A stretch of DNA of 64,000 nucleotides from positions 29,090 to 93,089 of the forward strand of contig JAAZXA010000068.1 in NCBI GenBank assembly GCA_014240385.1. Reading direction: 5' to 3'. Within the stretch, counting starts at the first letter, position 1. Each line of letters opens with the position of its first letter. Positions 5,479-59,156 of this stretch are shown here, in pieces. Both the position numbers and the translations under genes were made by a program. Origin of the DNA: Methanobacteriota archaeon (lineage in GTDB: Archaea; Thermoplasmatota; Poseidoniia; Poseidoniales; Poseidoniaceae). A model generated the notes under the pieces. The model was not told the origin of the DNA. It ran no database searches and saw nothing but the letters and a program-made list of their open reading frames with translations.

Positions 5479-6354
5479 TCAAACTGGAACCCATAGTTTC
5501 CTGCCATTAGATGAACAGGCTCGGACTAGAGAGGCTGCAGCACTTGGAGAATTGAAGGTCACATCTCGAGTAAATCGTAAATGTTTGCCGTCTTCAATTA
5601 TTGCTCCTTTTTCAAGGAGTTCTTTTCTCCATCTTTGCTCGCTTAACCTCCATGAGTCTCGGGGTTGCTTGTTTGCTGTAGATCCACGAAATACCACGAA
5701 CTTCTCGTTGCGGTATTGGCCTGTTGCTTCAACACCATTTGTTAGTGCAAGCTTCAGCATATCGTTGTCCCAGTATTCTTCTGATAGCCAGTTTCCCTTG
5801 TTATCCATGCATAGAACCTGCTTACCGCCGGCTCCTTCCCATGGACTGTTTGAAAATACGACTGATACTGACGGCCATCTTGACGCTCCGCCCTTAACAT
5901 GTGCAGGGCCGGTGAAGTCAAGTCTCCCTTTGAAGAAAACCAAATGCGAAGCATGAGGAAAAATCCAATTATGCCACATCAGGGTTTCACAGTTGGTAGG
6001 TCGGATTAGCAAGACGACGATTTCTGCATCGCCATTCTGCACAGAATCAAATGCCTTCTTTACGAACGGTTTGATTCCGTGGCTTGTTTTGCTGGAGTAT
6101 GGCGGGTTGCACCATACTATTCCTTCCCACTTCTGTTCTAGGGAGTCCATCTCAATATCGTAGTAATTCTCGCATAGGGCGTTTTCTTCGCTTGCAGCCG
6201 CATCCAATGTGAATGGGCCGAATCTGGCATTTAGAGAATCGAATATTGCTGTCGGAGTGCGCATGTCGTTTTCATCGCTATTCTTCTGCTTTCGATTCTT
6301 ATGCCAGGAGCGAACTTCCTCTGGCGTCATTTCAATTGATATCTTTTCAGACAT
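5479..6354 (-). CDS. DNA N6-adenine methyltransferase (phage Dam-like family)
   Basis: IVWCNPPYS catalytic NPPY motif; motif start 6352-6354; 291 aa. Confidence 0.7.
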   Translation of the reverse strand: MSEKISIEMTPEEVRSWHKNRKQKNSDENDMRTPTAIFDSLNARFGPFTLDAAASEENALCENYYDIEMDSLEQKWEGIVWCNPPYSSKTSHGIKPFVKKAFDSVQNGDAEIVVLLIRPTNCETLMWHNWIFPHASHLVFFKGRLDFTGPAHVKGGASRWPSVSVVFSNSPWEGAGGKQVLCMDNKGNWLSEEYWDNDMLKLALTNGVEATGQYRNEKFVVFRGSTANKQPRDSWRLSEQRWRKELLEKGAIIEDGKHLRFTRDVTFNSPSAAASLVRACSSNGRKLWVPV

Positions 6355-9384: not shown

Positions 9385-9951
9385 CTATTGTTCAATCCAA
9401 TGCCCATCAGAATCGTATTCCTTTGGGTCAATGGTTGTCTTTTCATAGGCTTTGTGTGGGTTGATGTACCAGAATGATTCTTTGTTGATGTAAATCACGG
9501 CTTGTTCTAGTTGCCTTCCTTTCTCAGAGTTTCCTCGTAAGATTTCTTCCGGCCTCCAGGTATGTCCATGTTCATCAACCATAGAATCATCACCATGTTT
9601 CGAACGGTGGTCTGAAAGTAAATGGTAGCTTAGGTTCACGGCAAATTGCATTTCACTATGCCAACCTGCAGCGTTTGTGCTCCATCCTGCTTCTTTCATT
9701 CTTTCAATCAATTCGATGGTGACGAATTCTGGTAGTTTCTGTCCTTCACCAAAAGTTGGTGATTCCTTATCGTAATCTTTGTTGAAGTTAGGCCAAACAA
9801 TCTTGAGTCTGTTCAAAAACACAAGAGGGTCTCGGCAGTCCCCGCAACCTGTTACTGCACTGACGCTTCCAAGAGTATATCCGCAAGCGAATCCAATTTC
9901 TTCGTCAGTAAAGTTTTCTTTATCCATATAGTATCCTACTAGTAGTGGCAT
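9385..9951 (-). CDS. hypothetical protein, 188 aa
   Basis: motif start 9949-9951. Confidence 0.55.
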   Translation of the reverse strand: MPLLVGYYMDKENFTDEEIGFACGYTLGSVSAVTGCGDCRDPLVFLNRLKIVWPNFNKDYDKESPTFGEGQKLPEFVTIELIERMKEAGWSTNAAGWHSEMQFAVNLSYHLLSDHRSKHGDDSMVDEHGHTWRPEEILRGNSEKGRQLEQAVIYINKESFWYINPHKAYEKTTIDPKEYDSDGHWIEQ

Positions 9952-9958
9952 GAGCGGT

Positions 9959-10222
9959 TTATTCGTGGATCCAGAATACCCTGATTATGTGCGTTTCTGC
10001 ACTTGTTTCATCTGGTTCAAGGTGTATCTTGGTTATTGTCCTCATTCTTTTGGTTCTCTTTGCTCCTGAATATGTTTCAAGTGACTTTTCTTCCATGTGA
10101 ATAATTTTCCAACGGGAATAGATGTCGAGAAGCCCGTGCTTCTTGCTGCTCATCTTTTTCCTTAGAGTGCTTGAAGCTACCTTTCCTCCAATTTTGGGGT
10201 TTTTCAGTGGTTCAATCTTCAT
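9959..10222 (-). CDS. hypothetical protein, 87 aa
   Basis: motif start 10220-10222. Confidence 0.5.
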   Translation of the reverse strand: MKIEPLKNPKIGGKVASSTLRKKMSSKKHGLLDIYSRWKIIHMEEKSLETYSGAKRTKRMRTITKIHLEPDETSAETHIIRVFWIHE

Positions 10223-35865: not shown

Positions 35866-36765
35866 TCAACTGAACACAGTCAAGAGTTCCTTCCACTCCT
35901 TTGGAGCACCCATTCTTAGCCGAATTGCCCTGTCGAGGGTTCGGAATGTAACGGCATCGCCATTGGCGTGAGTCTCTTTCAAATGTTTCAATACGCCCCT
36001 TTTGATGTTAATATCAACGCCAGGGTACATATTGGGTAGAATTGTGTTCATTCGTTCAAAAACCTCTGTAGTTGTAAGAACAACAGGGACCAACCAAGAC
36101 CTGTCGACCAGGGGTTGAGGCATTTCATGTTCCATCTTGTTTGTGATGAAGATTACCTGTCCCTTGAAATCGAACTTTCTCGGTAGTCCGTTGTTATCAG
36201 CCCATGAACTGTTCCATGAGATGACTCTTTGTCCATATGAGTCAAGTGCAGCCTTGCACAGTTCCATCATAGTCTCCCCAGACCAGATATCCACATCGTC
36301 TAGCACTAGCACTCCACCTTCTTGGCGGTCGTGCATAGCGGTGTAGACTCCGGTAGGAGCAATGTGTCCGGCAACCCAAGTGAATCCTTGCTTGCCTTTC
36401 TTGTCCTCTACGAGGTTCATTCGCTTGAGTGCTTCCTTTACCATGTGAGATTTTCCTAGTCCGCCTGTTCCACAGACGATTACTGAGGGACTAAATCTTC
36501 GAATTACCATCAACACAATTGATTCCATCATTTCGAATCTTTTGTTGACTGAGTGTTTGCTCATTTTATCGGTAATCGATTGGTTTCGCGCTTTCATTTC
36601 TCGGATTTTGGTATTTTCCTCGATTGATTGCGTTTCTGCTGTTGTTGCTGTACTTGCAATTGGTGTTACAACTTCGTTAGTCACACTTGAGGGGTTCGTA
36701 AAATTGATGTTCTCAAGTGTGCCGTTTTTGATATTTGTTTCTCCTTGCAAGTTATTCGTTTGCAT
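35866..36765 (-). CDS. P-loop ATPase (AAA-like)
   Basis: VIVCGTGGLGKSHMVKEAL Walker A and VLVLDDVDIW Walker B; 299 aa; motif start 36763-36765. Confidence 0.5.
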   Translation of the reverse strand: MQTNNLQGETNIKNGTLENINFTNPSSVTNEVVTPIASTATTAETQSIEENTKIREMKARNQSITDKMSKHSVNKRFEMMESIVLMVIRRFSPSVIVCGTGGLGKSHMVKEALKRMNLVEDKKGKQGFTWVAGHIAPTGVYTAMHDRQEGGVLVLDDVDIWSGETMMELCKAALDSYGQRVISWNSSWADNNGLPRKFDFKGQVIFITNKMEHEMPQPLVDRSWLVPVVLTTTEVFERMNTILPNMYPGVDINIKRGVLKHLKETHANGDAVTFRTLDRAIRLRMGAPKEWKELLTVFS

Positions 36766-37695: not shown

Positions 37696-37777
37696 CATGT
37701 GGGGTTATCGTTATGTCCATCTCGATTCATGGCTCCATTGCCGACCTCTAATAGGCGGAGCGGGATTTTTTTCGGTG
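37696..37777. repeat. ~82-bp repeat, copy 1 (CATGTGGGGTTATCGTTATGTCCATCTCGATTCATGGCTCCATTGCCGACCTCTAATAGGCGGAGCGGGATTTTTTTCGG)
   Basis: ~97% identical to 40303-40383; upstream (minus-strand sense) of basic-protein gene 37163..37429. Confidence 0.75.
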
Positions 37778-38144: not shown

Positions 38145-39071
38145 TCATACTCCGACGGATTTTGCTTTCTTGCTGTTTGTGATTGTTACAGCCAAGTTTG
38201 GTAATCCATCTTCATCTGTGCGTAGGTCAATGAAGTAGCCACGGATGCTTTCGTTGCAATCTAATGCTAAACGCCAGACACTTTGTTTTCCTGTTGGAGG
38301 TGCGGCAATTGGTATGCCTGCTCCCTCAACTAGGGTGTGAACAGAGTAATCAGCCTCATTCATTGGGTTTGAAGCTGCTCGTCCGGACAAGATGTAACCA
38401 GGGGTGATTCCCTGTCCATCATGGCGGGTTAGGCTCATCAAGTTGGCTGGACCGTTTAGGTCGCCAAGAAAGTTGATGAGCCCGATTCCGATTTGTCCTC
38501 GAGTAACTTTCCCATTTGATTGTGGGGTTGAGTCCTGTCCTTCCATGAAAAATGGAATAGATCTGATGCGTAGAGCACTATTGATTAGTGCAACGAATCC
38601 TTGAACCATGTTCAGACTGTTGGAGTTGTAAAGCTGCCATCTGCTGAGGCCATCCACTGATGGGGTAGGCCAGTAGTCCAATTTTTCGTGATACTCACAT
38701 TCTGCCATTCGCACGAATACCGTGTTCAGCCCGATGATTGTTGGGCTTGGTGCGGTTACGATGTCTGAGATGATTCCTGCATCTTTGAGGATGCTGAGTT
38801 CATCAACGAGGGCTTGCTTATCAAGTCCGAAGGCCAGCATGTCGCATCTGACTTCGTAGACTGGTCCGTCTCCGTCAGTATTTGGGACATAGATGAAGCG
38901 AGTTCCACCGTTTACAATGTATCGGGTGAAGTTCTTCTTTCCTTTTTGCTTGGTCTTCCTTGTGACTTCTACTCCTTCCAAGTGTTGTTCTGCTGCTTGG
39001 AGGGTATTGATTAAGTCCTCTGGGTCTATCTTTTCGTTCGTTTTGGTTTCTGTTTGCATGTTTGTTTGCAT
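38145..39071 (-). CDS. hypothetical protein, 308 aa
   Basis: motif start 39069-39071. Confidence 0.55.
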   Translation of the reverse strand: MQTNMQTETKTNEKIDPEDLINTLQAAEQHLEGVEVTRKTKQKGKKNFTRYIVNGGTRFIYVPNTDGDGPVYEVRCDMLAFGLDKQALVDELSILKDAGIISDIVTAPSPTIIGLNTVFVRMAECEYHEKLDYWPTPSVDGLSRWQLYNSNSLNMVQGFVALINSALRIRSIPFFMEGQDSTPQSNGKVTRGQIGIGLINFLGDLNGPANLMSLTRHDGQGITPGYILSGRAASNPMNEADYSVHTLVEGAGIPIAAPPTGKQSVWRLALDCNESIRGYFIDLRTDEDGLPNLAVTITNSKKAKSVGV

Positions 39072-39095: not shown

Positions 39096-39422
39096 TCAAC
39101 GGTATGCACCATACTTCAAACCGGGGATTGGGTGGTTTCCGGCTCCACGACGCCTCATTGTGGCAATCATGGAATGAAGGACTTGGTTCGCACGGAACGC
39201 AAGTTCATTTGGTCCCTTTGAAGGATCCAAATTTCCTTTGAAGTCGAATGCACCTGCTTCTTGAATGTCTGTCTCGCATAGGAGGCAGAGCCATTCAGGA
39301 GCTTTTCCAATTGTTAGCACCTTGCGGTGTCCAACAGAGGAGAACTCCTCGCTGTTCAGGTTGCAGTTGCATATAGCGCATGTTCTTGTTATCAATTTCT
39401 GCTTCGTTTGTGTTTGTAGCAT
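39096..39422 (-). CDS. Zn-binding protein, 108 aa (first gene of leftward block)
   Basis: ATG 39420-39422; upstream context ACCGCAC 9 nt from ATG rather than abutting; CAICNCN...CLLCETD. Confidence 0.5.
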   Translation of the reverse strand: MLQTQTKQKLITRTCAICNCNLNSEEFSSVGHRKVLTIGKAPEWLCLLCETDIQEAGAFDFKGNLDPSKGPNELAFRANQVLHSMIATMRRRGAGNHPIPGLKYGAYR

Positions 39423-39840
39423 GTGTGGTGTGTGCGGTTTGGGTTCTGGCAGAGCATTACCTTCACCTACTACGGTCTCGATTCTCCCTTGTTTCTCAAA
39501 TCCTAACCGGAAAGTCCGGTAGTCGGGTAGGTTAAATCCACCTATGATGGTGAATTAGTCCTCTTAATTGAGAATCGGCCTGCGTGGAACTCTGCTTCCT
39601 CTACGGCCATGGGGGAGTCGGCTCTAAGCAACATCAAGTCAAAGTAAGCATCCCCGATGGATTGCTCCATCTTCGTCTGCTTAGATCATGCTATGATATC
39701 GTTCGTAGCGACGCTTTGACTTGAATCGGCTTCGAGCTATCGATTCAGTAGTTGGTGGCCTCTACCACTGCTCGCTATCCGTTAAGGATGAGCATGTGGT
39801 TTTGGCCGTTATACGAGCGGTTGCGTAAACATTGGCAATC

Positions 39841-40305
39841 TCATTGAGCGACCTGCCGCTTTCGTCTTGCTAAAGGAACTGGTGTTCTTTTGGGCTTGAC
39901 GGTTTTAGCGGCAGGTTGTACTCGGCTTCTGGACGCCTGATTAAACAGGTTAGTCGCAGATGATGTTCTTGCCTTATTCTTCTGCCCCTTGAACTGGGAT
40001 TTCTTGGCATGTGGCTTTGACGCCTTTGCCTTGACAGTTTTCATGTGCTTTCTCCAAGCCTTGATGTGATTATCATAGATTGGATCTGCGAAAACTGCTT
40101 CTGGCACATACCGAGAGACCATACTTCCGATTCGATTCCAGCCACCAAAACTCAATGAATCATTCATTGCGTTTTTGATTTTGGAAACATAGGATGCTGG
40201 AGCATTCTTATTCAGTTTGCTCCAGTGTTCGGAACCCATCTTGGTAACCCAAGTTGGGATGTAGAGTTCTTGCGGGGTTTCGATGTTCTTATTTTGCATA
40301 TTCAT
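39841..40305 (-). CDS. basic protein with K/R-rich tail, 154 aa
   Basis: ATG 40303-40305 inside 82-bp repeat copy 2 (context CCCCCC-ATG); C-terminal KKSQFKGQKNKAR...KPKRTPVPLARRKRQ. Confidence 0.5.
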   Translation of the reverse strand: MNMQNKNIETPQELYIPTWVTKMGSEHWSKLNKNAPASYVSKIKNAMNDSLSFGGWNRIGSMVSRYVPEAVFADPIYDNHIKAWRKHMKTVKAKASKPHAKKSQFKGQKNKARTSSATNLFNQASRSRVQPAAKTVKPKRTPVPLARRKRQVAQ

Positions 40306-40383
40306 GGGGGGTTATCGTTATGTCCATCTCGAATCATGGCTCCATTGCCGACCTCTAATAGGCGGAGCGGGATTTTTTTCGGT
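40303..40383. repeat. ~82-bp repeat, copy 2
   Basis: see 37696-37777; abuts start codon of gene 39841..40305. Confidence 0.75.
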
Positions 40384-40400
40384 AGTGTTGATGGGAGAAT

Positions 40401-40778
40401 TTAGTCCTCAGCGATTGTGGGATCTTGAAGCGAATCATTTGCTTCTGCTGTTCCCTTTGCTGGGGACAGAACTTTGGACTCATTGAAGGTCCAACCTAAT
40501 TCCATCATCATGGATAGAATCCATTCAGGTGCTTGACTCCAGTTGCCATGGAACTTGATGTTGCACATGTTGGCGAATTCAATTATCTCGCTTTCTAATG
40601 TGCTTTGTGTTTTGCCATGGGTTGCTGCTGTCGCTGCAATTGCCTGATTAATGGATGCTCCAGATGCTTCTACTTCGAGCAATACTGTGTCCCAAAGGGT
40701 CATCATTGCTGAGTATAGGCTCAGGTATATTCGTTCTGCCATCGTGCTTGTTTGCTTGCTAACTTGTGTGTGTTGCAT
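40401..40778 (-). CDS. hypothetical protein, 125 aa
   Basis: ATG 40776-40778 in CCCCAC-ATG context (catgtggggtatgg). Confidence 0.45.
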   Translation of the reverse strand: MQHTQVSKQTSTMAERIYLSLYSAMMTLWDTVLLEVEASGASINQAIAATAATHGKTQSTLESEIIEFANMCNIKFHGNWSQAPEWILSMMMELGWTFNESKVLSPAKGTAEANDSLQDPTIAED

Positions 40779-40802
40779 GTGGGGTATGGGAAGACTTTGT
40801 CT

Positions 40803-40860
40803 TCCTCATTAGCATAGGTCATAGGGGCCGTAGGCCCTGACCGTTTTAGTCATGTTTTGG
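40803..40860. repeat. two-hairpin element, copy 1 (..CCTCATTAGCATAGGTCATAGGGGCCGTAGGCCCTGACC + T/GT-rich tail)
   Basis: hairpin GGAAGAC-tttg-TCTTCC then GGGCC-GTA-GGCCC; 3 copies (40803, 41195, 42041). Confidence 0.65.
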
Positions 40861-41034
40861 TGCTAAGTTTTATTCTACCTCTCGATAGAAACGGCGCAAA
40901 GCAACCTTTGGACTCCTCCCGTAAAGGGTGGTGTGTGTGGTGTTACGGGTGTCCATGGGTCTCTCTCGCCAATAAAGCGAGTTGTAGGCGTACTCCAACG
41001 CCTCGTTGTTCGTCAATGATTTGACTACACCTCA

Positions 41035-41168
41035 TGGTGGACCGTGCTGGATTCGAACCAGCGGCCTCCTAAGACAGACAACTTCGACTCCTTCCGTCCT
41101 GCCCGGGACAGTTCGGTTTTTGTCTTATTCTGTTTCTTAGGCGCTCTTCCTGACTGAGCTAACGGCCC
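41035..41168 (-). tRNA. archaeal-type tRNA with ~57-nt anticodon-loop intron and encoded CCA; isotype unresolved
   Basis: revcomp reads GGGCCGT-TA-GCTC-AGTCAGGAA-GAGC-G-CCTAA[64 nt]TTAGG-AGGCC-GCTGG-TTCGAAT-CCAGC-ACGGTCC-A-CCA: all four stems canonical; loop+intron between CCTAA/TTAGG. Confidence 0.7.
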
Positions 41169-41194
41169 GTAACGGTGTTTTGAGGAAGTATTTC

Positions 41195-41250
41195 TTCCTC
41201 ATTGGTATAGGTCATAGGGGCCGTAGGCCCTGACCCATTTGTGTGTGGTT
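41195..41250. repeat. two-hairpin element, copy 2
   Basis: GAGGAAG-tattt-CTTCCTC then ATTGGTATAGGTCATAGGGGCCGTAGGCCCTGACC, GT-rich tail, then start-less TGTGAGCGGTTT (41261-41272). Confidence 0.65.
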
Positions 41251-41376
41251 TTTGTGTGTTTGTGAGCGGTTTAGCCTGATTTCCAATCCATACTGACGAA
41301 CTTCCTCGTAAACCAATTCTGGCCTTTCGGCACTCTCGGTTTGCGTAAGAGAGCGAGATCGTTCCCCGTGAGGGGC

Positions 41377-41646
41377 TTAGATCTTCGTAGCTCGCCTTCT
41401 GTTCACCTGGAACCATTGCTGGTACAGGTGCTCTCCAATAACTACTGCTGCAGGGTCGAGCATCGGGTTTCCGCTTGCTAGTGGACGGTCAAAAGACCAA
41501 TCCATGTGCTTACGGTGTTGCCGATATTGCTGTCGCCTGTAACTCAAATAGGGGTGTCCTTCACCGTCAAAGCGGTGTCGGTAACGATATTTTCTTATTT
41601 TTCCCCTCTTCCCAGCATTGGAAATCGTTTGTTGGCTAATTTGCAT
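41377..41646 (-). CDS. basic R/Q/Y-rich hypothetical protein, 89 aa
   Basis: ATG 41644-41646, no motif and no SD; in control region; weak. Confidence 0.25.
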   Translation of the reverse strand: MQISQQTISNAGKRGKIRKYRYRHRFDGEGHPYLSYRRQQYRQHRKHMDWSFDRPLASGNPMLDPAAVVIGEHLYQQWFQVNRRRATKI

Positions 41647-42040
41647 TTATCATACAAGCCCTGAACTACCTCATGTCCGTGGGGCTAATCCACATTGTCC
41701 TTTCGGAGCGTAGAATCACCTAAGCAGCAACCAGCCGCTTTTGCTTCGTAACATATCGGACCAACTGACTAATGCCAGTAGTGATTAAGTCACCAACGAG
41801 GTCTTTTCGTCAATGTTACGGTTTTCGGTGGACTACATGGGAAAGGAGCGATGATAGTCGCTACTTTCTCTCAATGTATATCCGTTAGCCGAGAAGAGGC
41901 ACCAAAAGGTGCGGGTATCTCTATTTCTCGACCCGGTGTCTCGGTGAAGTCCTCTTTCGAGGGATCCTCCGCCTTATCCCCTATCTCTAGGGTTTAGCAG
42001 ATACTTCGTGTAGGCCCTTGAGCCAACCGAGAGAGGGCAT

Positions 42041-42100
42041 TCCTGTCCTCATTAGATGAGGTCATAGGAGCCCTAGGCCTTGCCGTAGCAAGGTGGTGTG
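42041..42100. repeat. two-hairpin element, copy 3 (diverged: GGAGCCCTAGGCC)
   Basis: TCCTGTCCTCATTAGATGAGGTCATAGGAGCCCTAGGCCTTGCC + GTGTGTGG tail. Confidence 0.55.
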
Positions 42101-42101
42101 T

Positions 42102-42545
42102 GGTATAATTTCTTCGTGGTTTTAGGCCACAGGAGGTATATGAATAGGCCCTTTTACTCTCTTTCCTTTGGATCTAGAGGCCTCAAGCTGCTACTCTTGG
42201 CCTCTTTCTCTAGAAAGAGTGTATTTTGGGTATTTCTTCATGTTCTCCACTGTATTGTGCCACAGGGGGTATATGAATAGGCCACTTGCAGTCAATTTCA
42301 AGATCGCTGAAAGGGCATGATTAGCTTCTCATGCCTTCGCTTTCAATTATTGCTTCAATATGGGTATTTCTTCATGTTCTCCACTGTATTGTGCCACAGG
42401 GGGTATATGAATAGGCCATATTTCGGTAACATCTCCAGATCTCTCCTTCGAAAGCTACTCCTGGCATGGCCGTAGGCCAAACAGGGTGAAATATGGGTAT
42501 TTCTTCATGTTCTCCACTGTATTGTGCCACAGGTGTTATTTGGCA
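42102..42545. promoter_or_regulatory. periodic array: 4 direct ~56-bp units (period ~126-134 bp), each ending in GGTATATGAATAGGCC box, immediately upstream of TFB gene
   Basis: units at 42102-42150 (degenerate), 42228-42283, 42361-42416, 42495-42533 (last lost the TATATGAA box); unique ~75-bp segments between units. Confidence 0.7.
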
Positions 42546-42563
42546 AGGCCGTTTCCGTTAACC

Positions 42564-43694
42564 ATGGCGAGTAATGACGATACGGCCAATCAGATGGGGG
42601 CGACTGCTGATTTTTCGTCAATATCGTCTGTCCTTTGTCCTGCATTCGAACAGCCGCCTGGGTGTGCCGTCTCCCTTGCCAAGCAACAAAACTTTGATTC
42701 TTTGTCAGTCGACTCTATGACTGGGAGGGCGTATTGCGGATCATGCGGCGTGGAATTCGTTGTTGACCGTTATCAGGTTAGTCATGAGCAGAAAAAGAGT
42801 GATGATGGGATAGAAACCTACGGATCTGTTCTCTCCAAGTCTGGGAAGCAACGGAATAGGGAACAATCCTTTGACCGCCTGGGCTATCTTTGTATTAGCA
42901 AGTTGGACTTATCTCAAAGTGTGTTGGCACAAGCTACCCGCTACCTGTACGATATGATGGAAGGTGGAGCCGCTAAAGGAGGTCGGGGTTTTCCCCAACT
43001 CGAAGTGGTTGCGGCTTATGTGGCAGGTAGAATGCATAATCAATCCCTTACTCTCGAACATGTTGTTAATATCCATCGAGATTGGATTACAGAAGAAGGG
43101 GAGTTCAAATCGATAAAGGCGGCATCTATGAAATCAGTTAATCGATTGCTGCAGAATATGACTAGGGAAAACATTCTGCCTTACCCCCGCCCTTCTGCAG
43201 ATGATATCATTGGTTCTAATTCGTGGTGCTTGGCTAATCTAGATGAAGTCATTATTCAGAATGCTAAGGAGTTGTCTAATTGCGGAGTCCAAGGTTCCCC
43301 CGATTCTATTGCTGCAGCATCGGTGATGGTGGCTGCGAAGAATAAGCGTGTTGTGAAACCCGGAGATGACTTATCGCGGCCACGAACACAAATGGCCGGA
43401 GAGGAAGATGGGCAGCGTTTAACGCTCGAAGTGATTGCCAAATTGTTTCCTGGCACTACTGCTAGAACTGTAAGGCGAAGAATGAAAGAGATTAGGGATG
43501 TTTTGGAACTTAGGCTACCTCTAACACGAGAGCAAGTAGAGGTTCTTGAAAATCCTGATCCCCGCAAGGTGCGTGTCCGTAATACTGTTGAGGAAGTATT
43601 CAGTCAATTGGATTCGGAATTGGAAGGAAAGATACCATTGACTTCTAAGGATGTAGCAATTCTACGAAAATTGAAAGATTCAAACAAGAGGTAA
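42564..43694 (+). CDS. tfb: transcription initiation factor TFB/TFIIB homologue
   Basis: N-terminal Cys cluster (CPAFEQPPGC...CGSCGVEF), two cyclin-like repeats (LEVVAAYVAGRMHNQSLTLEHVVNI), C-terminal BRE-recognition-helix-like TTARTVRRRMKEI; ATG 42564 (track ORF starts earlier inside repeat array). Confidence 0.65.
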   Translation: MASNDDTANQMGATADFSSISSVLCPAFEQPPGCAVSLAKQQNFDSLSVDSMTGRAYCGSCGVEFVVDRYQVSHEQKKSDDGIETYGSVLSKSGKQRNREQSFDRLGYLCISKLDLSQSVLAQATRYLYDMMEGGAAKGGRGFPQLEVVAAYVAGRMHNQSLTLEHVVNIHRDWITEEGEFKSIKAASMKSVNRLLQNMTRENILPYPRPSADDIIGSNSWCLANLDEVIIQNAKELSNCGVQGSPDSIAAASVMVAAKNKRVVKPGDDLSRPRTQMAGEEDGQRLTLEVIAKLFPGTTARTVRRRMKEIRDVLELRLPLTREQVEVLENPDPRKVRVRNTVEEVFSQLDSELEGKIPLTSKDVAILRKLKDSNKR

Positions 43695-50446: not shown

Positions 50447-51211
50447 ATGACGCTAAGCGGATTCATTGCAATGCCTCGAAAACCGGGGAAAACAAAGATT
50501 GGGCAGATCCTCAAGAATATTGGATTCAAGGATAAGGGAGCAGCAGGAAATATGTGGGTCTTTGGTAAGACTCGGTTCCGTGTAGATGTGGTTGATTTTA
50601 GGGATGATTTGAGAGATCATGACGCTGAATGGGTTGAAGAAGTTGGATGGGATGATAATTGGGCCGTCCGTATTGCTGTCAATCATTCTAACAGAACAGA
50701 TGAAAATTACATCTTGTGGCATTCGATTCTAGTCATAGCCGCTGAGTGCTTAGGCGTTAGAGAAATTTGGTTAGATGGCGGCACAGGCATTCCACAGCAA
50801 CCGTACACACTTCGAGAGTTGTTTCCTGAATTGAAATCTGATGAAGGAGAAGACTTGATTGAAGAATCCGAAGCCGCCCCTGTTCTAGTCGACAAGGCAG
50901 AAGTCTTGGAGCTTCCAGATATTGAAACACCTGCTGAGCCTGTTTTGGTTCCATCTGAGCCTGAGCCTGAGCCTGAGCCTGAACCTGTGCCTGAGCCTCA
51001 AACAGAATCGTCCGAAGAGGATTACGATTCCTGGGGATGGGATGAGGATGAGGATGAGGATGAGGATGAGGATGAGGATGAGGACGATTCATGGAATGAG
51101 GATGAGGATGAGGATGAGGATGAGGATGAGGACGAGGATGAATCCGAAGAAGAGAATGAATCCGAAGAGAATGAATCCGAAGAAGGTGTTGATGTAATCA
51201 CTGAATGGTGA
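50447..51211 (+). CDS. acidic tandem-repeat protein, 254 aa
   Basis: (PE)n then (DE)n low-complexity runs encoded by GAGCCT and GAGGAT hexanucleotide repeats at 50953-51180. Confidence 0.55.
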   Translation: MTLSGFIAMPRKPGKTKIGQILKNIGFKDKGAAGNMWVFGKTRFRVDVVDFRDDLRDHDAEWVEEVGWDDNWAVRIAVNHSNRTDENYILWHSILVIAAECLGVREIWLDGGTGIPQQPYTLRELFPELKSDEGEDLIEESEAAPVLVDKAEVLELPDIETPAEPVLVPSEPEPEPEPEPVPEPQTESSEEDYDSWGWDEDEDEDEDEDEDEDDSWNEDEDEDEDEDEDEDESEEENESEENESEEGVDVITEW

Positions 51212-51234
51212 GTTCTTTGGTTGAAGGGGGTGCA

Positions 51235-51948
51235 ATGGCGTGGGGAGGCCTCCTTTACCTCAAGCACCTTTGGGATTCTTGGAAAAGTCACCGAATAGGA
51301 ATATATGGCCTGTGGGCGTGTGGTAAGACCACCCTGAATCGTTATTTGAATACCTCTGGGGATCTCGAAGAAGATACTGCCCGTATGACTAGCACCGCTC
51401 ACCCCTATGATAAGAAGAAGAAGCAGTATGTTCCACCAAATGCAACCCGCAAGAGAATTCATGTTTTGTCCGAAGCAAATCAGTCATTCCGTAGAACCAT
51501 TCTCTCGTCTGATATTGGAGGCCAGTCCGAATATTTCAATCTCTGGGTTCGAGATTTGGTGTTGCGTGATGTTGAAGTAATCATCTATCTGGTTGATTCA
51601 AGGGATGATCCAGATGGGCTTCAAGAGGCAACATTTCGAGACTTTACGAGAATTATTGCCGAGAGAGATTTCCGTTTTACTGAACGAAAATTGAGGAAAA
51701 AGGCCAGAAATTATCAGCCGAAGGTGGTAGCCCTTGTTGCCAATAAATCGGACCTTTGGCTCAATCCAGACGAACGGGCGTATTACGAGGGGTCTGGCAT
51801 TGGCAGGCATCCAATTTTTGATGCTTACAGGCCGCACTTGGTACGGCTACAGAGAGCCGGTATTCCTACTTTGAAGCGAAGTATTTCAGCCCTCCATGGG
51901 TATGATGTGGAGCGATTAATATGGGATTGCTTGAAGGCGAAGTCGTGA
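51235..51948 (+). CDS. Arf-like small GTPase (Ras superfamily)
   Basis: GLWACGKTTL (P-loop G1), DIGGQ (G3, Arf/Galpha-type), IIYLVDSRDD, NKSDL (G4) with ~50-aa insert between G3 and G4; GAAGGGGGTG SD before ATG 51235. Confidence 0.6.
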   Translation: MAWGGLLYLKHLWDSWKSHRIGIYGLWACGKTTLNRYLNTSGDLEEDTARMTSTAHPYDKKKKQYVPPNATRKRIHVLSEANQSFRRTILSSDIGGQSEYFNLWVRDLVLRDVEVIIYLVDSRDDPDGLQEATFRDFTRIIAERDFRFTERKLRKKARNYQPKVVALVANKSDLWLNPDERAYYEGSGIGRHPIFDAYRPHLVRLQRAGIPTLKRSISALHGYDVERLIWDCLKAKS

Positions 51949-53453: not shown

Positions 53454-53753
53454 ATGAGTGTTGAAAGAGTTGATGAATTGCTAACAGAGATGGCGTCCGG
53501 TTCGAAGTCAAGAAAGAAAGAAATAGATGTTTATTCGATTATGGATGATTGGTTTCAACCTAAATCAGAATTGATGAAGCATGTGATTATTATTCAAATG
53601 ATTGCTTGTATTATCGTATCGATGTTCCTTTTGATTACTGTCGGAGATTCTCTGAGTAGTGAGGGCTTGCTCTTTGCAGTCATGGCTTTCATGTTGTTTG
53701 TTGGCGGATCCTTCCAATTTTACAATCGAATGACGGGTGGAGGGAGATACTGA
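53454..53753 (+). CDS. membrane protein, 99 aa
   Basis: two TM helices; tight coupling to upstream gene. Confidence 0.45.
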   Translation: MSVERVDELLTEMASGSKSRKKEIDVYSIMDDWFQPKSELMKHVIIIQMIACIIVSMFLLITVGDSLSSEGLLFAVMAFMLFVGGSFQFYNRMTGGGRY

Positions 53754-54995: not shown

Positions 54996-55297
54996 AAGGA
55001 AAATAAGGGTGGTCTCGGCTCATAAACCCCACGATGGGGGAAGACTAAACCGAATGATCCCCGTAGGGCCAAGTGGACGGCAGGAGGGGCATCGGAGAGG
55101 TCGACACACGCAAATGTGCAGACTCCGATACTCCTGTCGTCCACCTGAGCATTAGAAATAAATGGCGGCGGTATATGTGATCTTCGCTGACCCCCCCCCC
55201 ATGAAAGTGAAAGTGTTGAATATGAATTGAGCCCCGGCGATACTGAGGGTATATGAACTATGCATAGTGGAAGAATTTCCTTGCGGCAGTAATGAAG

Positions 55298-55371
55298 CGG
55301 CCCCACGGGGATTTGAACCCCGGTTACTGGTTCCGCAAACCAGTGTGATATCCAAGCTACACTATGGGGCC
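55298..55371 (-). tRNA. tRNA-Arg (anticodon GCG), archaeal-type, no encoded CCA
   Basis: revcomp GGCCCCA..CTGGT-TTGCGGA-ACCAG..GGGG-TTCAAAT-CCCC-G-TGGGGCC-G; 7-nt loop TTGCGGA. Confidence 0.7.
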
Positions 55372-57563: not shown

Positions 57564-58385
57564 CTACTCTTCCTCAGTCGCTTGATTGTTTTGGAAAGGA
57601 ATGGTTATTTCAGGTTCGGCCACAAGGGTTGGATGTATGCCTTCTACTACCTCTCCATCAACATCCATCATGCCATAGATGTACAAATTCTTTTTCTCGA
57701 GAATGTTCTTGATTGTCTGTCTGTGCCAGACCACCTTTCCCTTCCTTGTTTTGATGGCTTTTGTTGCTAGTTCATTGATTATGTCGGATATTGTGTAGCC
57801 TTGAGTTTCCATATTGAAGATTATGTTTACTACGCTTGCTTCTTCTTCGTTTGGTACAAGCAAACCTTTCTTGGATCTCTTTCCTGTATCATCGATTTCA
57901 ATATTCATGTCATACCCATAGGGGGGTGTTCCAAGCCAAATTCCTTTCAACTTTGCACCTGCCATGCCCATTTTGACTCTTTCTTTGATTTCATTTCGCC
58001 TTAGTTCAGCCAATGCTGCGAATACTATGTAGAAGAAGCGGCCTTGAACCGTTGTAGTGTCCATTTGTTCAGAGATACATGCAATATGGCAGTTGTTTGT
58101 ATCAATTGTGTTTACAAATTCAATTGCGTTCATGGTGTTGCGATGAAACCGGTCTAGTTTGTAACCAACTACTGCGTCCCATTCTTCGCCCATGGTTTCC
58201 ATCATCGCACCATATCCAGGCCTGTTGTCTGTGAATCCACCTGATCCTGTATCTGAGTAGCTTCGAATGTAAGTCCAACCTTGCATTTCGATGTAGTTCT
58301 GGCAAAGCCTCAACTGTTCCTCTAGGCTGTGGCCTTTTGCTTCTTGCTTCTCGGTTGAAACTCTTGTGTAGATTATTGCTCGCAT
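57564..58385 (-). CDS. serine recombinase (resolvase/invertase family) with C-terminal extension
   Basis: N-terminal MRAIIYTRVSTEKQ catalytic-Ser motif; GGAGAGGAAG SD; 273 aa. Confidence 0.7.
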   Translation of the reverse strand: MRAIIYTRVSTEKQEAKGHSLEEQLRLCQNYIEMQGWTYIRSYSDTGSGGFTDNRPGYGAMMETMGEEWDAVVGYKLDRFHRNTMNAIEFVNTIDTNNCHIACISEQMDTTTVQGRFFYIVFAALAELRRNEIKERVKMGMAGAKLKGIWLGTPPYGYDMNIEIDDTGKRSKKGLLVPNEEEASVVNIIFNMETQGYTISDIINELATKAIKTRKGKVVWHRQTIKNILEKKNLYIYGMMDVDGEVVEGIHPTLVAEPEITIPFQNNQATEEE

Positions 58386-58703: not shown

Positions 58704-59082
58704 GGTTCGTTCACCATAACCTTGGTTAATTGTCGCTATGAAGGGTCAGTCGTATTACACCTTCGCCCTGTGAACCGAATTATCACCCGTTTAACACGCT
58801 ATTCCCCCCCACATAGGGGGTATGTTGACGATGAAGGAGTTCCTTTGCGCTCAACCCCCCCACCTTCATAGTCAAAAACGGGTATTTTTCACCTCATAAC
58901 TTCTCATTGAATCGCAAGTCCTCACATCACATCTCAATTGTAAGGTTGGGGTGGAATGAACCTCATGTGGTTCTGCGCTTCTAACCTTCGTTCACAGGCA
59001 ATTCCAATTCCTATCTACACATTAGGGGTGAATTACCTACTTCGTGCAACAAGGGATCTAGATGAAACAATAGGAAACAAGG

Positions 59083-59156
59083 CGGGTCATGCAGGGTTCG
59101 AACCTGCGGCCTACTGGTTAAGAGCCAGTCGCTCTACCTGACTAAGCTAATGACCC
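59083..59156 (-). tRNA. tRNA-Lys (anticodon CTT), archaeal-type
   Basis: revcomp GGGTCAT-TA-GCTT-AGTCAGGTA-GAGC-G-ACTGG-CTCTTAA-CCAGT-AGGCC-GCAGG-TTCGAAC-CCTGC-ATGACCC-G(CC). Confidence 0.75.

Follow-up and report, generated by a model that had tools for sequence, protein, structure and literature searches.

A large structured RNA and a TFB-like gene diverge across a promoter-like repeat array in a probable tailed virus of a marine archaeon

We analysed positions 39423-42563 of a 64-kb window (the whole stretch of DNA under study, 64,000 nucleotides (nt) of contig JAAZXA010000068.1), where the leftward and rightward genes of what is probably a tailed virus of a marine archaeon part. The interval encodes on its minus strand a well-supported, previously uncatalogued structured RNA of 765 nt, conserved and base-paired, which a tandem repeat array separates from a divergent gene for a TFB-like transcription factor. 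This new large RNA in a rare marine virus lineage, paired with a TFB-like gene, is the main value of the locus. We read the interval as a compact group of genes promoted separately from one another, located where the two transcription directions of this marine and probably archaeal tailed virus diverge, and give this reading a probability of about 0.6. An earlier note on this DNA, made from the sequence alone, had called the interval a 3.1-kb non-coding control region, which is a wrong description: the interval consists mainly of RNA genes and small protein genes. DNA free of open reading frames (ORFs) is found at 39423-39840, 40306-40400 and 40779-42563, and most of it is conserved RNA-coding sequence, not spacer. 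The features on which the argument turns are the following.

41274-42038, minus strand: large structured non-coding RNA of about 765 nt, recognised by conservation and covariation, without a known family
41262-41272, minus strand: AAACCGCTCAC motif bordering the large RNA on its 3′ side, the same motif that stands before 87 ATGs and before the tRNA-like genes of relatives
42043-42090, minus strand: element C, a 67% identical copy of repeat family D3, whose end lies 5-10 nt ahead of the large RNA's first helix
41193-41240, minus strand: element B, a copy with 92% identity to element A, whose end lies about 25 nt ahead of the 5′ end of a tRNA-like gene
40800-40847, minus strand: element A, of repeat family D3/D14, whose end lies about 20 nt ahead of the orf125 ATG
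42110-42555, plus strand: array of four promoter-like units, with CCACAGG cores at 42127, 42260, 42394 and 42527
42564-43694, plus strand: TFB/TFIIB-like gene, the first of the plus-strand block

The comparison set consisted of the window and ten related loci (designated by L numbers), the latter found solely in marine or lagoon metagenomes. Nucleotide identity of the large RNA was 81% to the L001 group and 54-56% to L010/L011. The longest nucleotide-level match lies at 41187-42150 (83% over about 990 nt), compared with 72-76% for genes outside the interval, and in the distant lineages, with TFB-like proteins of only 44-46% identity, this RNA and few other small pieces could still be matched. 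RNAalifold, applied to eight sequences from four lineages, returned 210 pairs in 34 helices. Both sides had changed in 65 of these pairs, against 24.8±3.7 compensatory pairs in column shuffles, none of the 500 shuffles reaching 65, and sliding the pairing partner by 1-3 columns left 7-13. Within the alignment, 94.5% of cells were paired (31-45% in controls), and a long-range helix joining columns 465-476 to 824-835 contains four compensatory pairs. The paired region maps to 42038-41274. We assigned the RNA to the minus strand because its folding energy is better in that sense (-203.8 versus -176.8 kcal/mol in the plus sense) and because of invariant G-U pairs. Indels within it are not multiples of three, and a protein-coding reading of 41159-41646 was rejected, as the two ORFs there (orf89 and orf85, of 89 and 85 amino acids) are frame-broken in relatives. 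The region thus combines compensatory pairs above controls with the lack of a conserved reading frame, as expected of a structured non-coding RNA.

No Rfam 15 family matched the large RNA at the gathering score, GOLLD, ROOL, RNase P, group I and group II introns, SRP and tmRNA being among the models searched, and the large RNAs of relatives were likewise without a match at that score. Permissive searches gave nothing relevant at E≤5 on 3.4 kb and no match at E≤10 on 826 nt. The RNA resembles GOLLD and ROOL in being hundreds of nt long, densely paired, virus-encoded, often near tRNA genes, without a protein partner or a known function and more conserved than the surrounding genes. It differs from both, which were in the searched Rfam, in having no sequence or structure match to either; moreover, the host here is probably archaeal, the TFB-like gene always lies divergently across the promoter array, and the four lineages are all marine. 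The few large phage RNAs described so far (GOLLD, ROOL) are not known to have a function, and our literature search found no description of a large structured RNA from an archaeal virus. Our best guess, by analogy, is that the RNA may be an abundant early RNA, a scaffold or a regulator of host or viral gene expression. Its strong covariation and its fixed TFB-like partner provide handles for experiments on how a virus takes over archaeal transcription.

The TFB-like gene starts at ATG 42564 and not at GTG 42486, as judged from an alignment of seven homologues. Public calls extend the ORF by 26 codons (42486-42563) into the last array unit, so that the called protein (P0001, 402 amino acids) begins with translated repeat. 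A 98-amino-acid public ORF over the array of L001 (9576-9872) is an apparent artefact of the same kind. Correcting this annotation trap matters for public contigs, where gene callers put ORFs over the array, while the local ORFs over the large RNA are unconserved. A Pfam scan matched the protein to the TFIIB repeat with 21.7 bits (E=2e-4), short of the cut-off of 23.6. In a Foldseek search, its AlphaFold model (predicted local distance difference test, pLDDT, of 65) came closest to TFIIB and Pyrococcus TFB (E=2e-7 to 4e-7); the top 30 matches were chains of TFIIB, TFB or Brf throughout (E=2e-7 to 3e-4), but their TM-scores were low, at 0.25-0.5. Two cyclin-like repeats are present in this predicted model of medium confidence. 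A sequence-profile search of the PDB with the protein returned nothing. Cysteines C51, C60, C84 and C87 of P0001 are invariant and fall in a predicted beta-rich N-terminal part modelled at low confidence, the part in which TFB has its zinc ribbon and the B-reader/linker that contact RNA polymerase. Among 5.8 billion proteins, only 11 relatives were retrieved, and the phage collection contained none.

The array occurs in every lineage, as 2-5 units that repeat every 120-135 bp. The periodic array seen in the earlier note was recovered as four units, spaced by 133, 134 and 133 nt. Each unit has a conserved block of about 60-75 bp, closing with GCCACAGGRG and GTATATGAA (or GTATAAAAA), after which come GGCC and a variable spacer; the last unit carries TTATTTGG or CTATATGA in place of GTATATGAA. 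Several units contain ideal TATA boxes, such as GGTATAAAAA. In five lineages (the window, L001, L002, L012 and L011), the last core is 37-38 nt from the TFB-like ATG, which puts the TATA-like box about 25 nt (24-26) upstream and fits an archaeal mRNA with a short leader or none. When 23 distinct units, drawn from five lineages, were aligned, neither sense gave a consensus RNA structure (about 0 kcal/mol), and small ORFs considered within the units have frames that are conserved neither between units nor between lineages. With no conserved RNA structure and no conserved ORF, the units act as DNA. Copy number is four in L007 and five in L001, and it differs between L011 (two copies, 9831-9954) and L023 (five, 9476-9963), whose large RNAs are 94% identical.

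The array is like archaeal promoters built from a B-recognition element (BRE) and a TATA box in that a purine-rich element directly precedes an AT-rich box, which stands about 25 nt before the start of a leaderless or near-leaderless mRNA. Haloarchaeal rRNA operons have tandemly repeated promoters upstream, and the likeness there is that of tandem promoter units ahead of one gene. The array differs from known BRE/TATA promoters in its block of about 75 bp, in its GCCACAGGRG, which is unlike the usual A-rich BRE, in the GATC of each unit and in serving a viral TFB-like gene instead of rRNA. A literature search for a described RNA, motif or tandem-promoter precedent gave nothing usable.

The second repeat family had been noticed earlier as three two-hairpin elements, which hold up as the 48-nt copies A, B and C. 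In the minus-strand sense, a GC hairpin comes first in each copy, then CYCCTATGAC and an AT-rich box, and finally another hairpin; in element A, CCCCTATGACC and TATGCTAA stand between the two hairpins. Across the 64 kb, CCTATGAC occurs five times, always on the minus strand (1.17 expected), with the fourth copy 32 nt upstream of the tRNA-Lys gene at 59156. Element C is kept in every lineage, and its upstream hairpin is maintained through compensatory changes (CCUUGC/GCAAGG versus CCUGCA/UGCAGG). In L001, 48-nt copies are found at the start of different units, a 40-codon ORF and orf125. Because each copy in the interval lies just upstream of a different minus-strand gene, the elements read best as promoter modules. 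With a TATA box expected about 26 nt upstream of the start, the geometry fits roughly for the three elements and for tRNA-Lys; their placement is that of archaeal promoters, and they would function as such. A scan for bacterial sigma-70 promoters and intrinsic terminators remained at the level of shuffled sequence. The motif YCAYAGGRG is present six times in one orientation within 1.6 kb (about 0.1 expected, by our own estimate), and elsewhere in the window twice on the plus strand and six times on the minus strand. The earlier note made the interval the putative site of the master early and late promoters of the element; promoters there are plausible, both repeat families being positioned like archaeal promoters.

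The repeats are conserved and lie at fixed positions relative to gene starts. In the reading we favour, leftward transcription would yield the 765-nt RNA, a tRNA-like RNA whose anticodon arm is extended, orf125, orf154 and a probable second RNA, with the large RNA, the tRNA-like gene and orf125 each behind one 48-nt archaeal-type promoter, whose GC hairpin may be an insulator, a terminator or a protein-binding site. Rightward, the four modules, with their BRE-like GCCACAGGRG and TATA box GTATATGAA (TTATTTGG in the last), would form stacked promoters or a factor-binding platform, and the last copy would drive a leaderless or short-leader mRNA for the viral TFB-like factor. We infer that the repeats serve as promoters, in which direction they fire and that GATC methylation may regulate them.

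Several points weigh against this reading. The TATA-like boxes of the 48-nt elements (TATGCTAA, TATACCAA and TCATCTAA) are weak. YCAYAGGRG has a single DNA orientation in both repeat families despite the opposite transcription assigned to them, and this shared orientation means that it may be a regulator site and not a BRE. The conserved block of the array, about 75 bp, is far longer than a core promoter. The promoter model also does not explain the single GATC in the spacer of each of the 23 distinct units (42171, 42302 and 42438 in the three full units of the window, and likewise in all units of L001, L002, L007, L010, L011 and L023), a site that is depleted window-wide (147 observed versus 236 expected). 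The large RNA is known from four lineages, with most sequences coming from one. Finally, transcript start sites, transcript direction and expression are predictions from the DNA, as is the host: the element is probably a tailed virus of a marine archaeon.

The genes to the left carry a start signal of their own. An exact CCGCTCATG precedes 87 ORFs on the minus strand between 152 and 39071, usually as AACCGCTC-ATG, and is absent from the plus-strand block and from the minus-strand block at 54-64 kb. As the ORF upstream of CCGCTCATG usually stops 7-11 nt before the ATG, this motif is essentially the whole intergenic spacer. No TATA-like signal was found at -26 of the 87 sites. The motif is also present in relatives. 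A variant, ACCGCTCAC, occurs without an ATG at 41262-41272, 39815, 2005, 11383, 26334 and 29372 of the window, at about 1335 in L001, and at about 2475 and 11145 in L010. In relatives it stands 2-10 nt ahead of the tRNA-like and tRNA-Lys genes; it is also found at the 3′ boundary of the large RNA, and 20-35 nt ahead of each of four conserved hairpin copies GGTGTCC-AATCCTTGG-ACGACACC (1947, 11328, 26270 and 29306). Given this ATG-less variant beside RNA genes and hairpins, the gene-start signal is not purely translational, and it suggests an unusual mode of gene expression.

The earlier note had also placed the replication origin in the interval. If so, the direct-repeat array in particular would be the origin, its repeats would be initiator sites and the divergent transcription would be incidental, which we consider unlikely. 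The array does consist of direct repeats in the largest gene-poor stretch, at a strand switch, and it shares intergenic repeats at divergent transcription with archaeal origins, which combine origin recognition boxes (ORBs), an AT-rich element and an adjacent orc1/cdc6 gene. Its conserved block of about 75 bp exceeds the length of a core promoter, and every lineage keeps one GATC per unit despite the depletion of this site, in a virus with a Dam-type methylase, a pattern that recalls methylation-controlled origins and pac sites. Nothing specific to an origin was found, however: neither an ORB dyad, nor an AT-rich element, nor a recognised initiator gene. With up to two mismatches to the pattern TCCASTGGAAAC, based on an ORB consensus (TCCA..GGAAAC-like), the window holds seven ORB-like dyads versus 10.3 expected, none of them in the array, and the CTCCACTG stretch of the window's units is unconserved in relatives. 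The G+C content of the interval is 45-51% (mean 47.5%) versus about 44% for the window, leaving no AT-rich unwinding element; the lowest 80-nt value in the interval (0.35) is inside orf154, and the most AT-rich spots are elsewhere, for example at 53523. No Orc1/Cdc6, MCM or Rep domain was detected among 50 ORFs scanned with Pfam, many of which are unannotated, and the best initiator candidate, at 35866-36765, has a weak AAA_16 match (E=0.0055) and no related PDB sequence. The long period of 120-135 bp and the uniformly direct, not inverted, orientation are unlike iterons or ORB arrangements; iterons are close repeats of 17-22 bp beside a rep gene, in contrast to the block of about 75 bp here, with no rep gene found. 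Furthermore, copy number varies from two to five among close relatives, and the last unit keeps a fixed distance of 37-38 nt to the ATG. The cumulative GC skew, which the earlier note had named as a check, has its minimum near the interval, at 36,534, but 3 kb to the left of it. Its maximum, within this window from a partial genome, coincides with the next strand switch (54,029); the skew thus tracks gene orientation and probably reflects the composition of the coding strand.

We think it very unlikely that the array units are tandem small-RNA genes with their own promoters and not repeats acting as DNA. Each unit offers a good TATA box with about 100 nt downstream, and several spacers contain hairpins, but the 23 units have no consensus structure, the array sequence has no oligo-T terminators, and the spacers are unconserved save for short linear motifs (GATC, AGCT and CTCCTGGC). 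It is highly improbable, too, that the 765-nt RNA is a divergent or rearranged catalytic RNA, RNase P-like or group I/II intron-like, that processes viral transcripts, for example at the ACCGCUC gene-start signal. An invariant 8-bp helix (helix 30), in which ACAGAA-GGCGAGCU pairs with GAGGA-AGUUCGUC, resembles the CR-V/CR-I strands of the RNase P P4 helix, a lead of low probability; invariant AGAGC and GCUCU segments occur where a P2-like pseudoknot would be, and ACCGCTCA borders the large RNA, the tRNA-like genes of relatives and the 87 ORFs. Against this, the RNase P, group I and group II models of Rfam stayed silent even at E≤10 on the 826 nt, the P4-like strands are in reverse order and, by our own analysis, the remaining topology yields no simple circular permutation. 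The suggestive positions are all invariant and so provide no covariation support, and no local RNA contains a segment complementary to ACCGCUC; specifically, no conserved antisense guide to it was found in the large RNA, the second RNA, the tRNA-like region or the array transcripts. A broader version, in which the RNA would represent a new class of viral functional RNA, possibly catalytic, with a P4-like ACAGAA/GAGGAAG core, is a long shot. Together with the TFB-like factor, such an RNA would run virus-specific expression, and ACCGCUC before the 87 genes would mark the points at which cutting or re-initiation turns a 39-kb transcript into leaderless mRNAs.

Apart from the large RNA, the compact gene cluster that we favour comprises the following minus-strand features, including one in the left flank.

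39096-39422, minus strand: orf108, a small Cys-rich protein gene in the left flank, single-frame by tblastn
39425-39830, minus strand: RNA2, probably another structured non-coding RNA, about 400 nt long, ORF-free and conserved
39621-39737, minus strand: inverted repeat forming an RNA2 stem, with arms at 39621-39644 and 39714-39737
39841-40305, minus strand: orf154, a basic small protein gene, intact in a single frame
40303-40383, minus strand: copy 2 of an 81-nt repeat, the upstream region or 5′ leader of orf154, 98% identical to its partner at 37696-37776
40401-40778, minus strand: orf125, a protein gene, intact in a single frame
40848-41037, minus strand: ORF-free 190-nt stretch 3′ of the tRNA-like gene, a possible trailer, with several hairpins
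41038-41168, minus strand: tRNA-like gene (Rfam tRNA) with a 57-64-nt insertion in the anticodon arm

Minus-strand genes had been said to end at 39422, but orf154 and orf125, intact and conserved, sit inside the interval and are real protein genes. The product of orf154 is 74-80% identical, in a single frame, in L001, L007, L008 and L009, and that of orf125 is 79-81% identical in the L001 group and 33-36% in L010, L011 and L012, likewise in a single frame. By tblastn, orf108 reaches 82-85% amino acid identity in L001 and L007-L009 and 47-49% in L010-L012; it has no Pfam or PHROG match. In relatives, orf154 lies beyond orf108, between it and the homologue of the gene at 38145-39071; its place in the window is thus the result of relocation. 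Copy 2 of the 81-nt repeat, listed earlier as an 82-bp repeat, ends at the orf154 ATG, and copy 1 precedes only a 15-codon ORF; the repeat was not found upstream of orf154 in relatives.

RNA2 is probably a second structured RNA, with moderate support. RNAalifold gave 97 pairs, of which seven are compensatory, and formal covariation is weak because there are effectively two informative lineages. Relatives differ by insertions and deletions of whole hairpins, and the core AAGCCGATTCAA...ATTGATGTTGC recurs at another position in the distant lineages L010, L011 and L023. The 10-bp inverted repeat described previously is real and longer than noted, with 24-nt arms that are 79% complementary. The stem is kept in relatives through the compensatory change CAAG/CTTG to CAAT/ATTG, while its apical part ranges from about 25 to 69 nt. 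Like this stem, the other features listed in the earlier note recur in related contigs.

The supposed intron-containing tRNA is borne out as far as the tRNA match goes (Rfam RF00005, 48.9 bits versus a gathering score of 29), but no archaeal-type splice motif was found in the 64 nt that replace the anticodon loop, and taking out the insertion leaves no canonical loop. ARAGORN with the -i option called a tRNA-Gln(CUG) with a 57-nt intron at a non-canonical position and with G32 and U37, and the sole 7-nt loop with U33 is GUCUGUC (G32, U37). A search of the fold for a bulge-helix-bulge found a long irregular arm with a 2-nt bulge and no 3-4-3 motif. Relatives have 131-nt tRNA-like genes with a homologous insertion, located elsewhere in the genome, for which anticodon calls are inconsistent (Ala, Ile and Gln). 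Owing to the abnormal loop, the lack of a bulge-helix-bulge and these inconsistent calls, we filed the gene as tRNA-like and not as a tRNA. The end of the 190-nt stretch closest to the tRNA-like gene, at about 40950-41037, is conserved and matches sequence beside the tRNA-like genes of relatives (40950-41071 to 1254-1363 of L007, and 40978-41059 to 1149-1225 of L001); the stretch may represent another small RNA or else a 3′ trailer.

The window has about 44% G+C and, judging from related contigs, is roughly half of a genome of about 100-130 kb. Its genes fall into three blocks, which are given here with other genes mentioned.

39-kb leftward block, minus strand: small genes
42.5-53.4 kb, plus strand: plus-strand block
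54-64 kb, minus strand: further minus-strand block
5479-6354: Dam-family methylase gene
59081-59156 and 55297-55371, minus strand: canonical tRNA-Lys and tRNA-Arg genes

Recognisable genes encode DNA methylases (one of Dam type), PAPS-reductase-like proteins, glycosyltransferases and a serine recombinase, and a 951-amino-acid protein has tail/baseplate-like PHROG matches. The canonical tRNA-Lys and tRNA-Arg genes lie near the recombinase gene (57564-58385, minus strand; Resolvase and Recombinase domains, E=3e-35), a hint that the virus may be temperate. These two tRNA genes are on the plus strand in L010 and L011, after the TFB-like gene. A single related IMG/VR contig, of 127.6 kb, was the sole match in that database and was reached in four ways. 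Comparison with a phage collection at the DNA and protein levels returned no close relatives, and an 18-mer scan of GTDB genomes gave chance matches only, as confirmed by BLAST and nhmmer, and hence no clue to the host.

Marine archaeal tailed viruses known as magroviruses carry TFB genes (PMC10768690). The element resembles these viruses (Aoguangviridae; PMC10768690) as a probable tailed virus from marine metagenomes with its own TFB-like factor and oppositely transcribed gene clusters. It differs from them in G+C content (about 44% in the window versus 31.5% in the type magrovirus; PMC10768690), in encoding a serine recombinase, whereas Aoguangviridae are reported to lack an integrase (PMC10768690), and in that no replisome genes were seen in the 64-kb window.

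Gene order varies among lineages: in relatives the tRNA-like gene is about 7 kb away and orf154 is beyond orf108. The positions compared were 39841-40383 of the window with 6104-6576 of L001, and the tRNA-like gene at 41038-41168 with 1201-1331 of L001, 1327-1457 of L007 and 2339-2469 of L010. These differences, together with the location of orf154 behind a duplicated 81-nt leader, suggest that modules may have been shuffled through recombination at repeats.

In the plus-strand block, an Arf-family small-GTPase-like protein is encoded at 51205-51948 (E=1.6e-5). Just upstream of it, at 50955-51185 and within a coding region, is an acidic hexanucleotide repeat, (GGATGA)n, with 18 copies.

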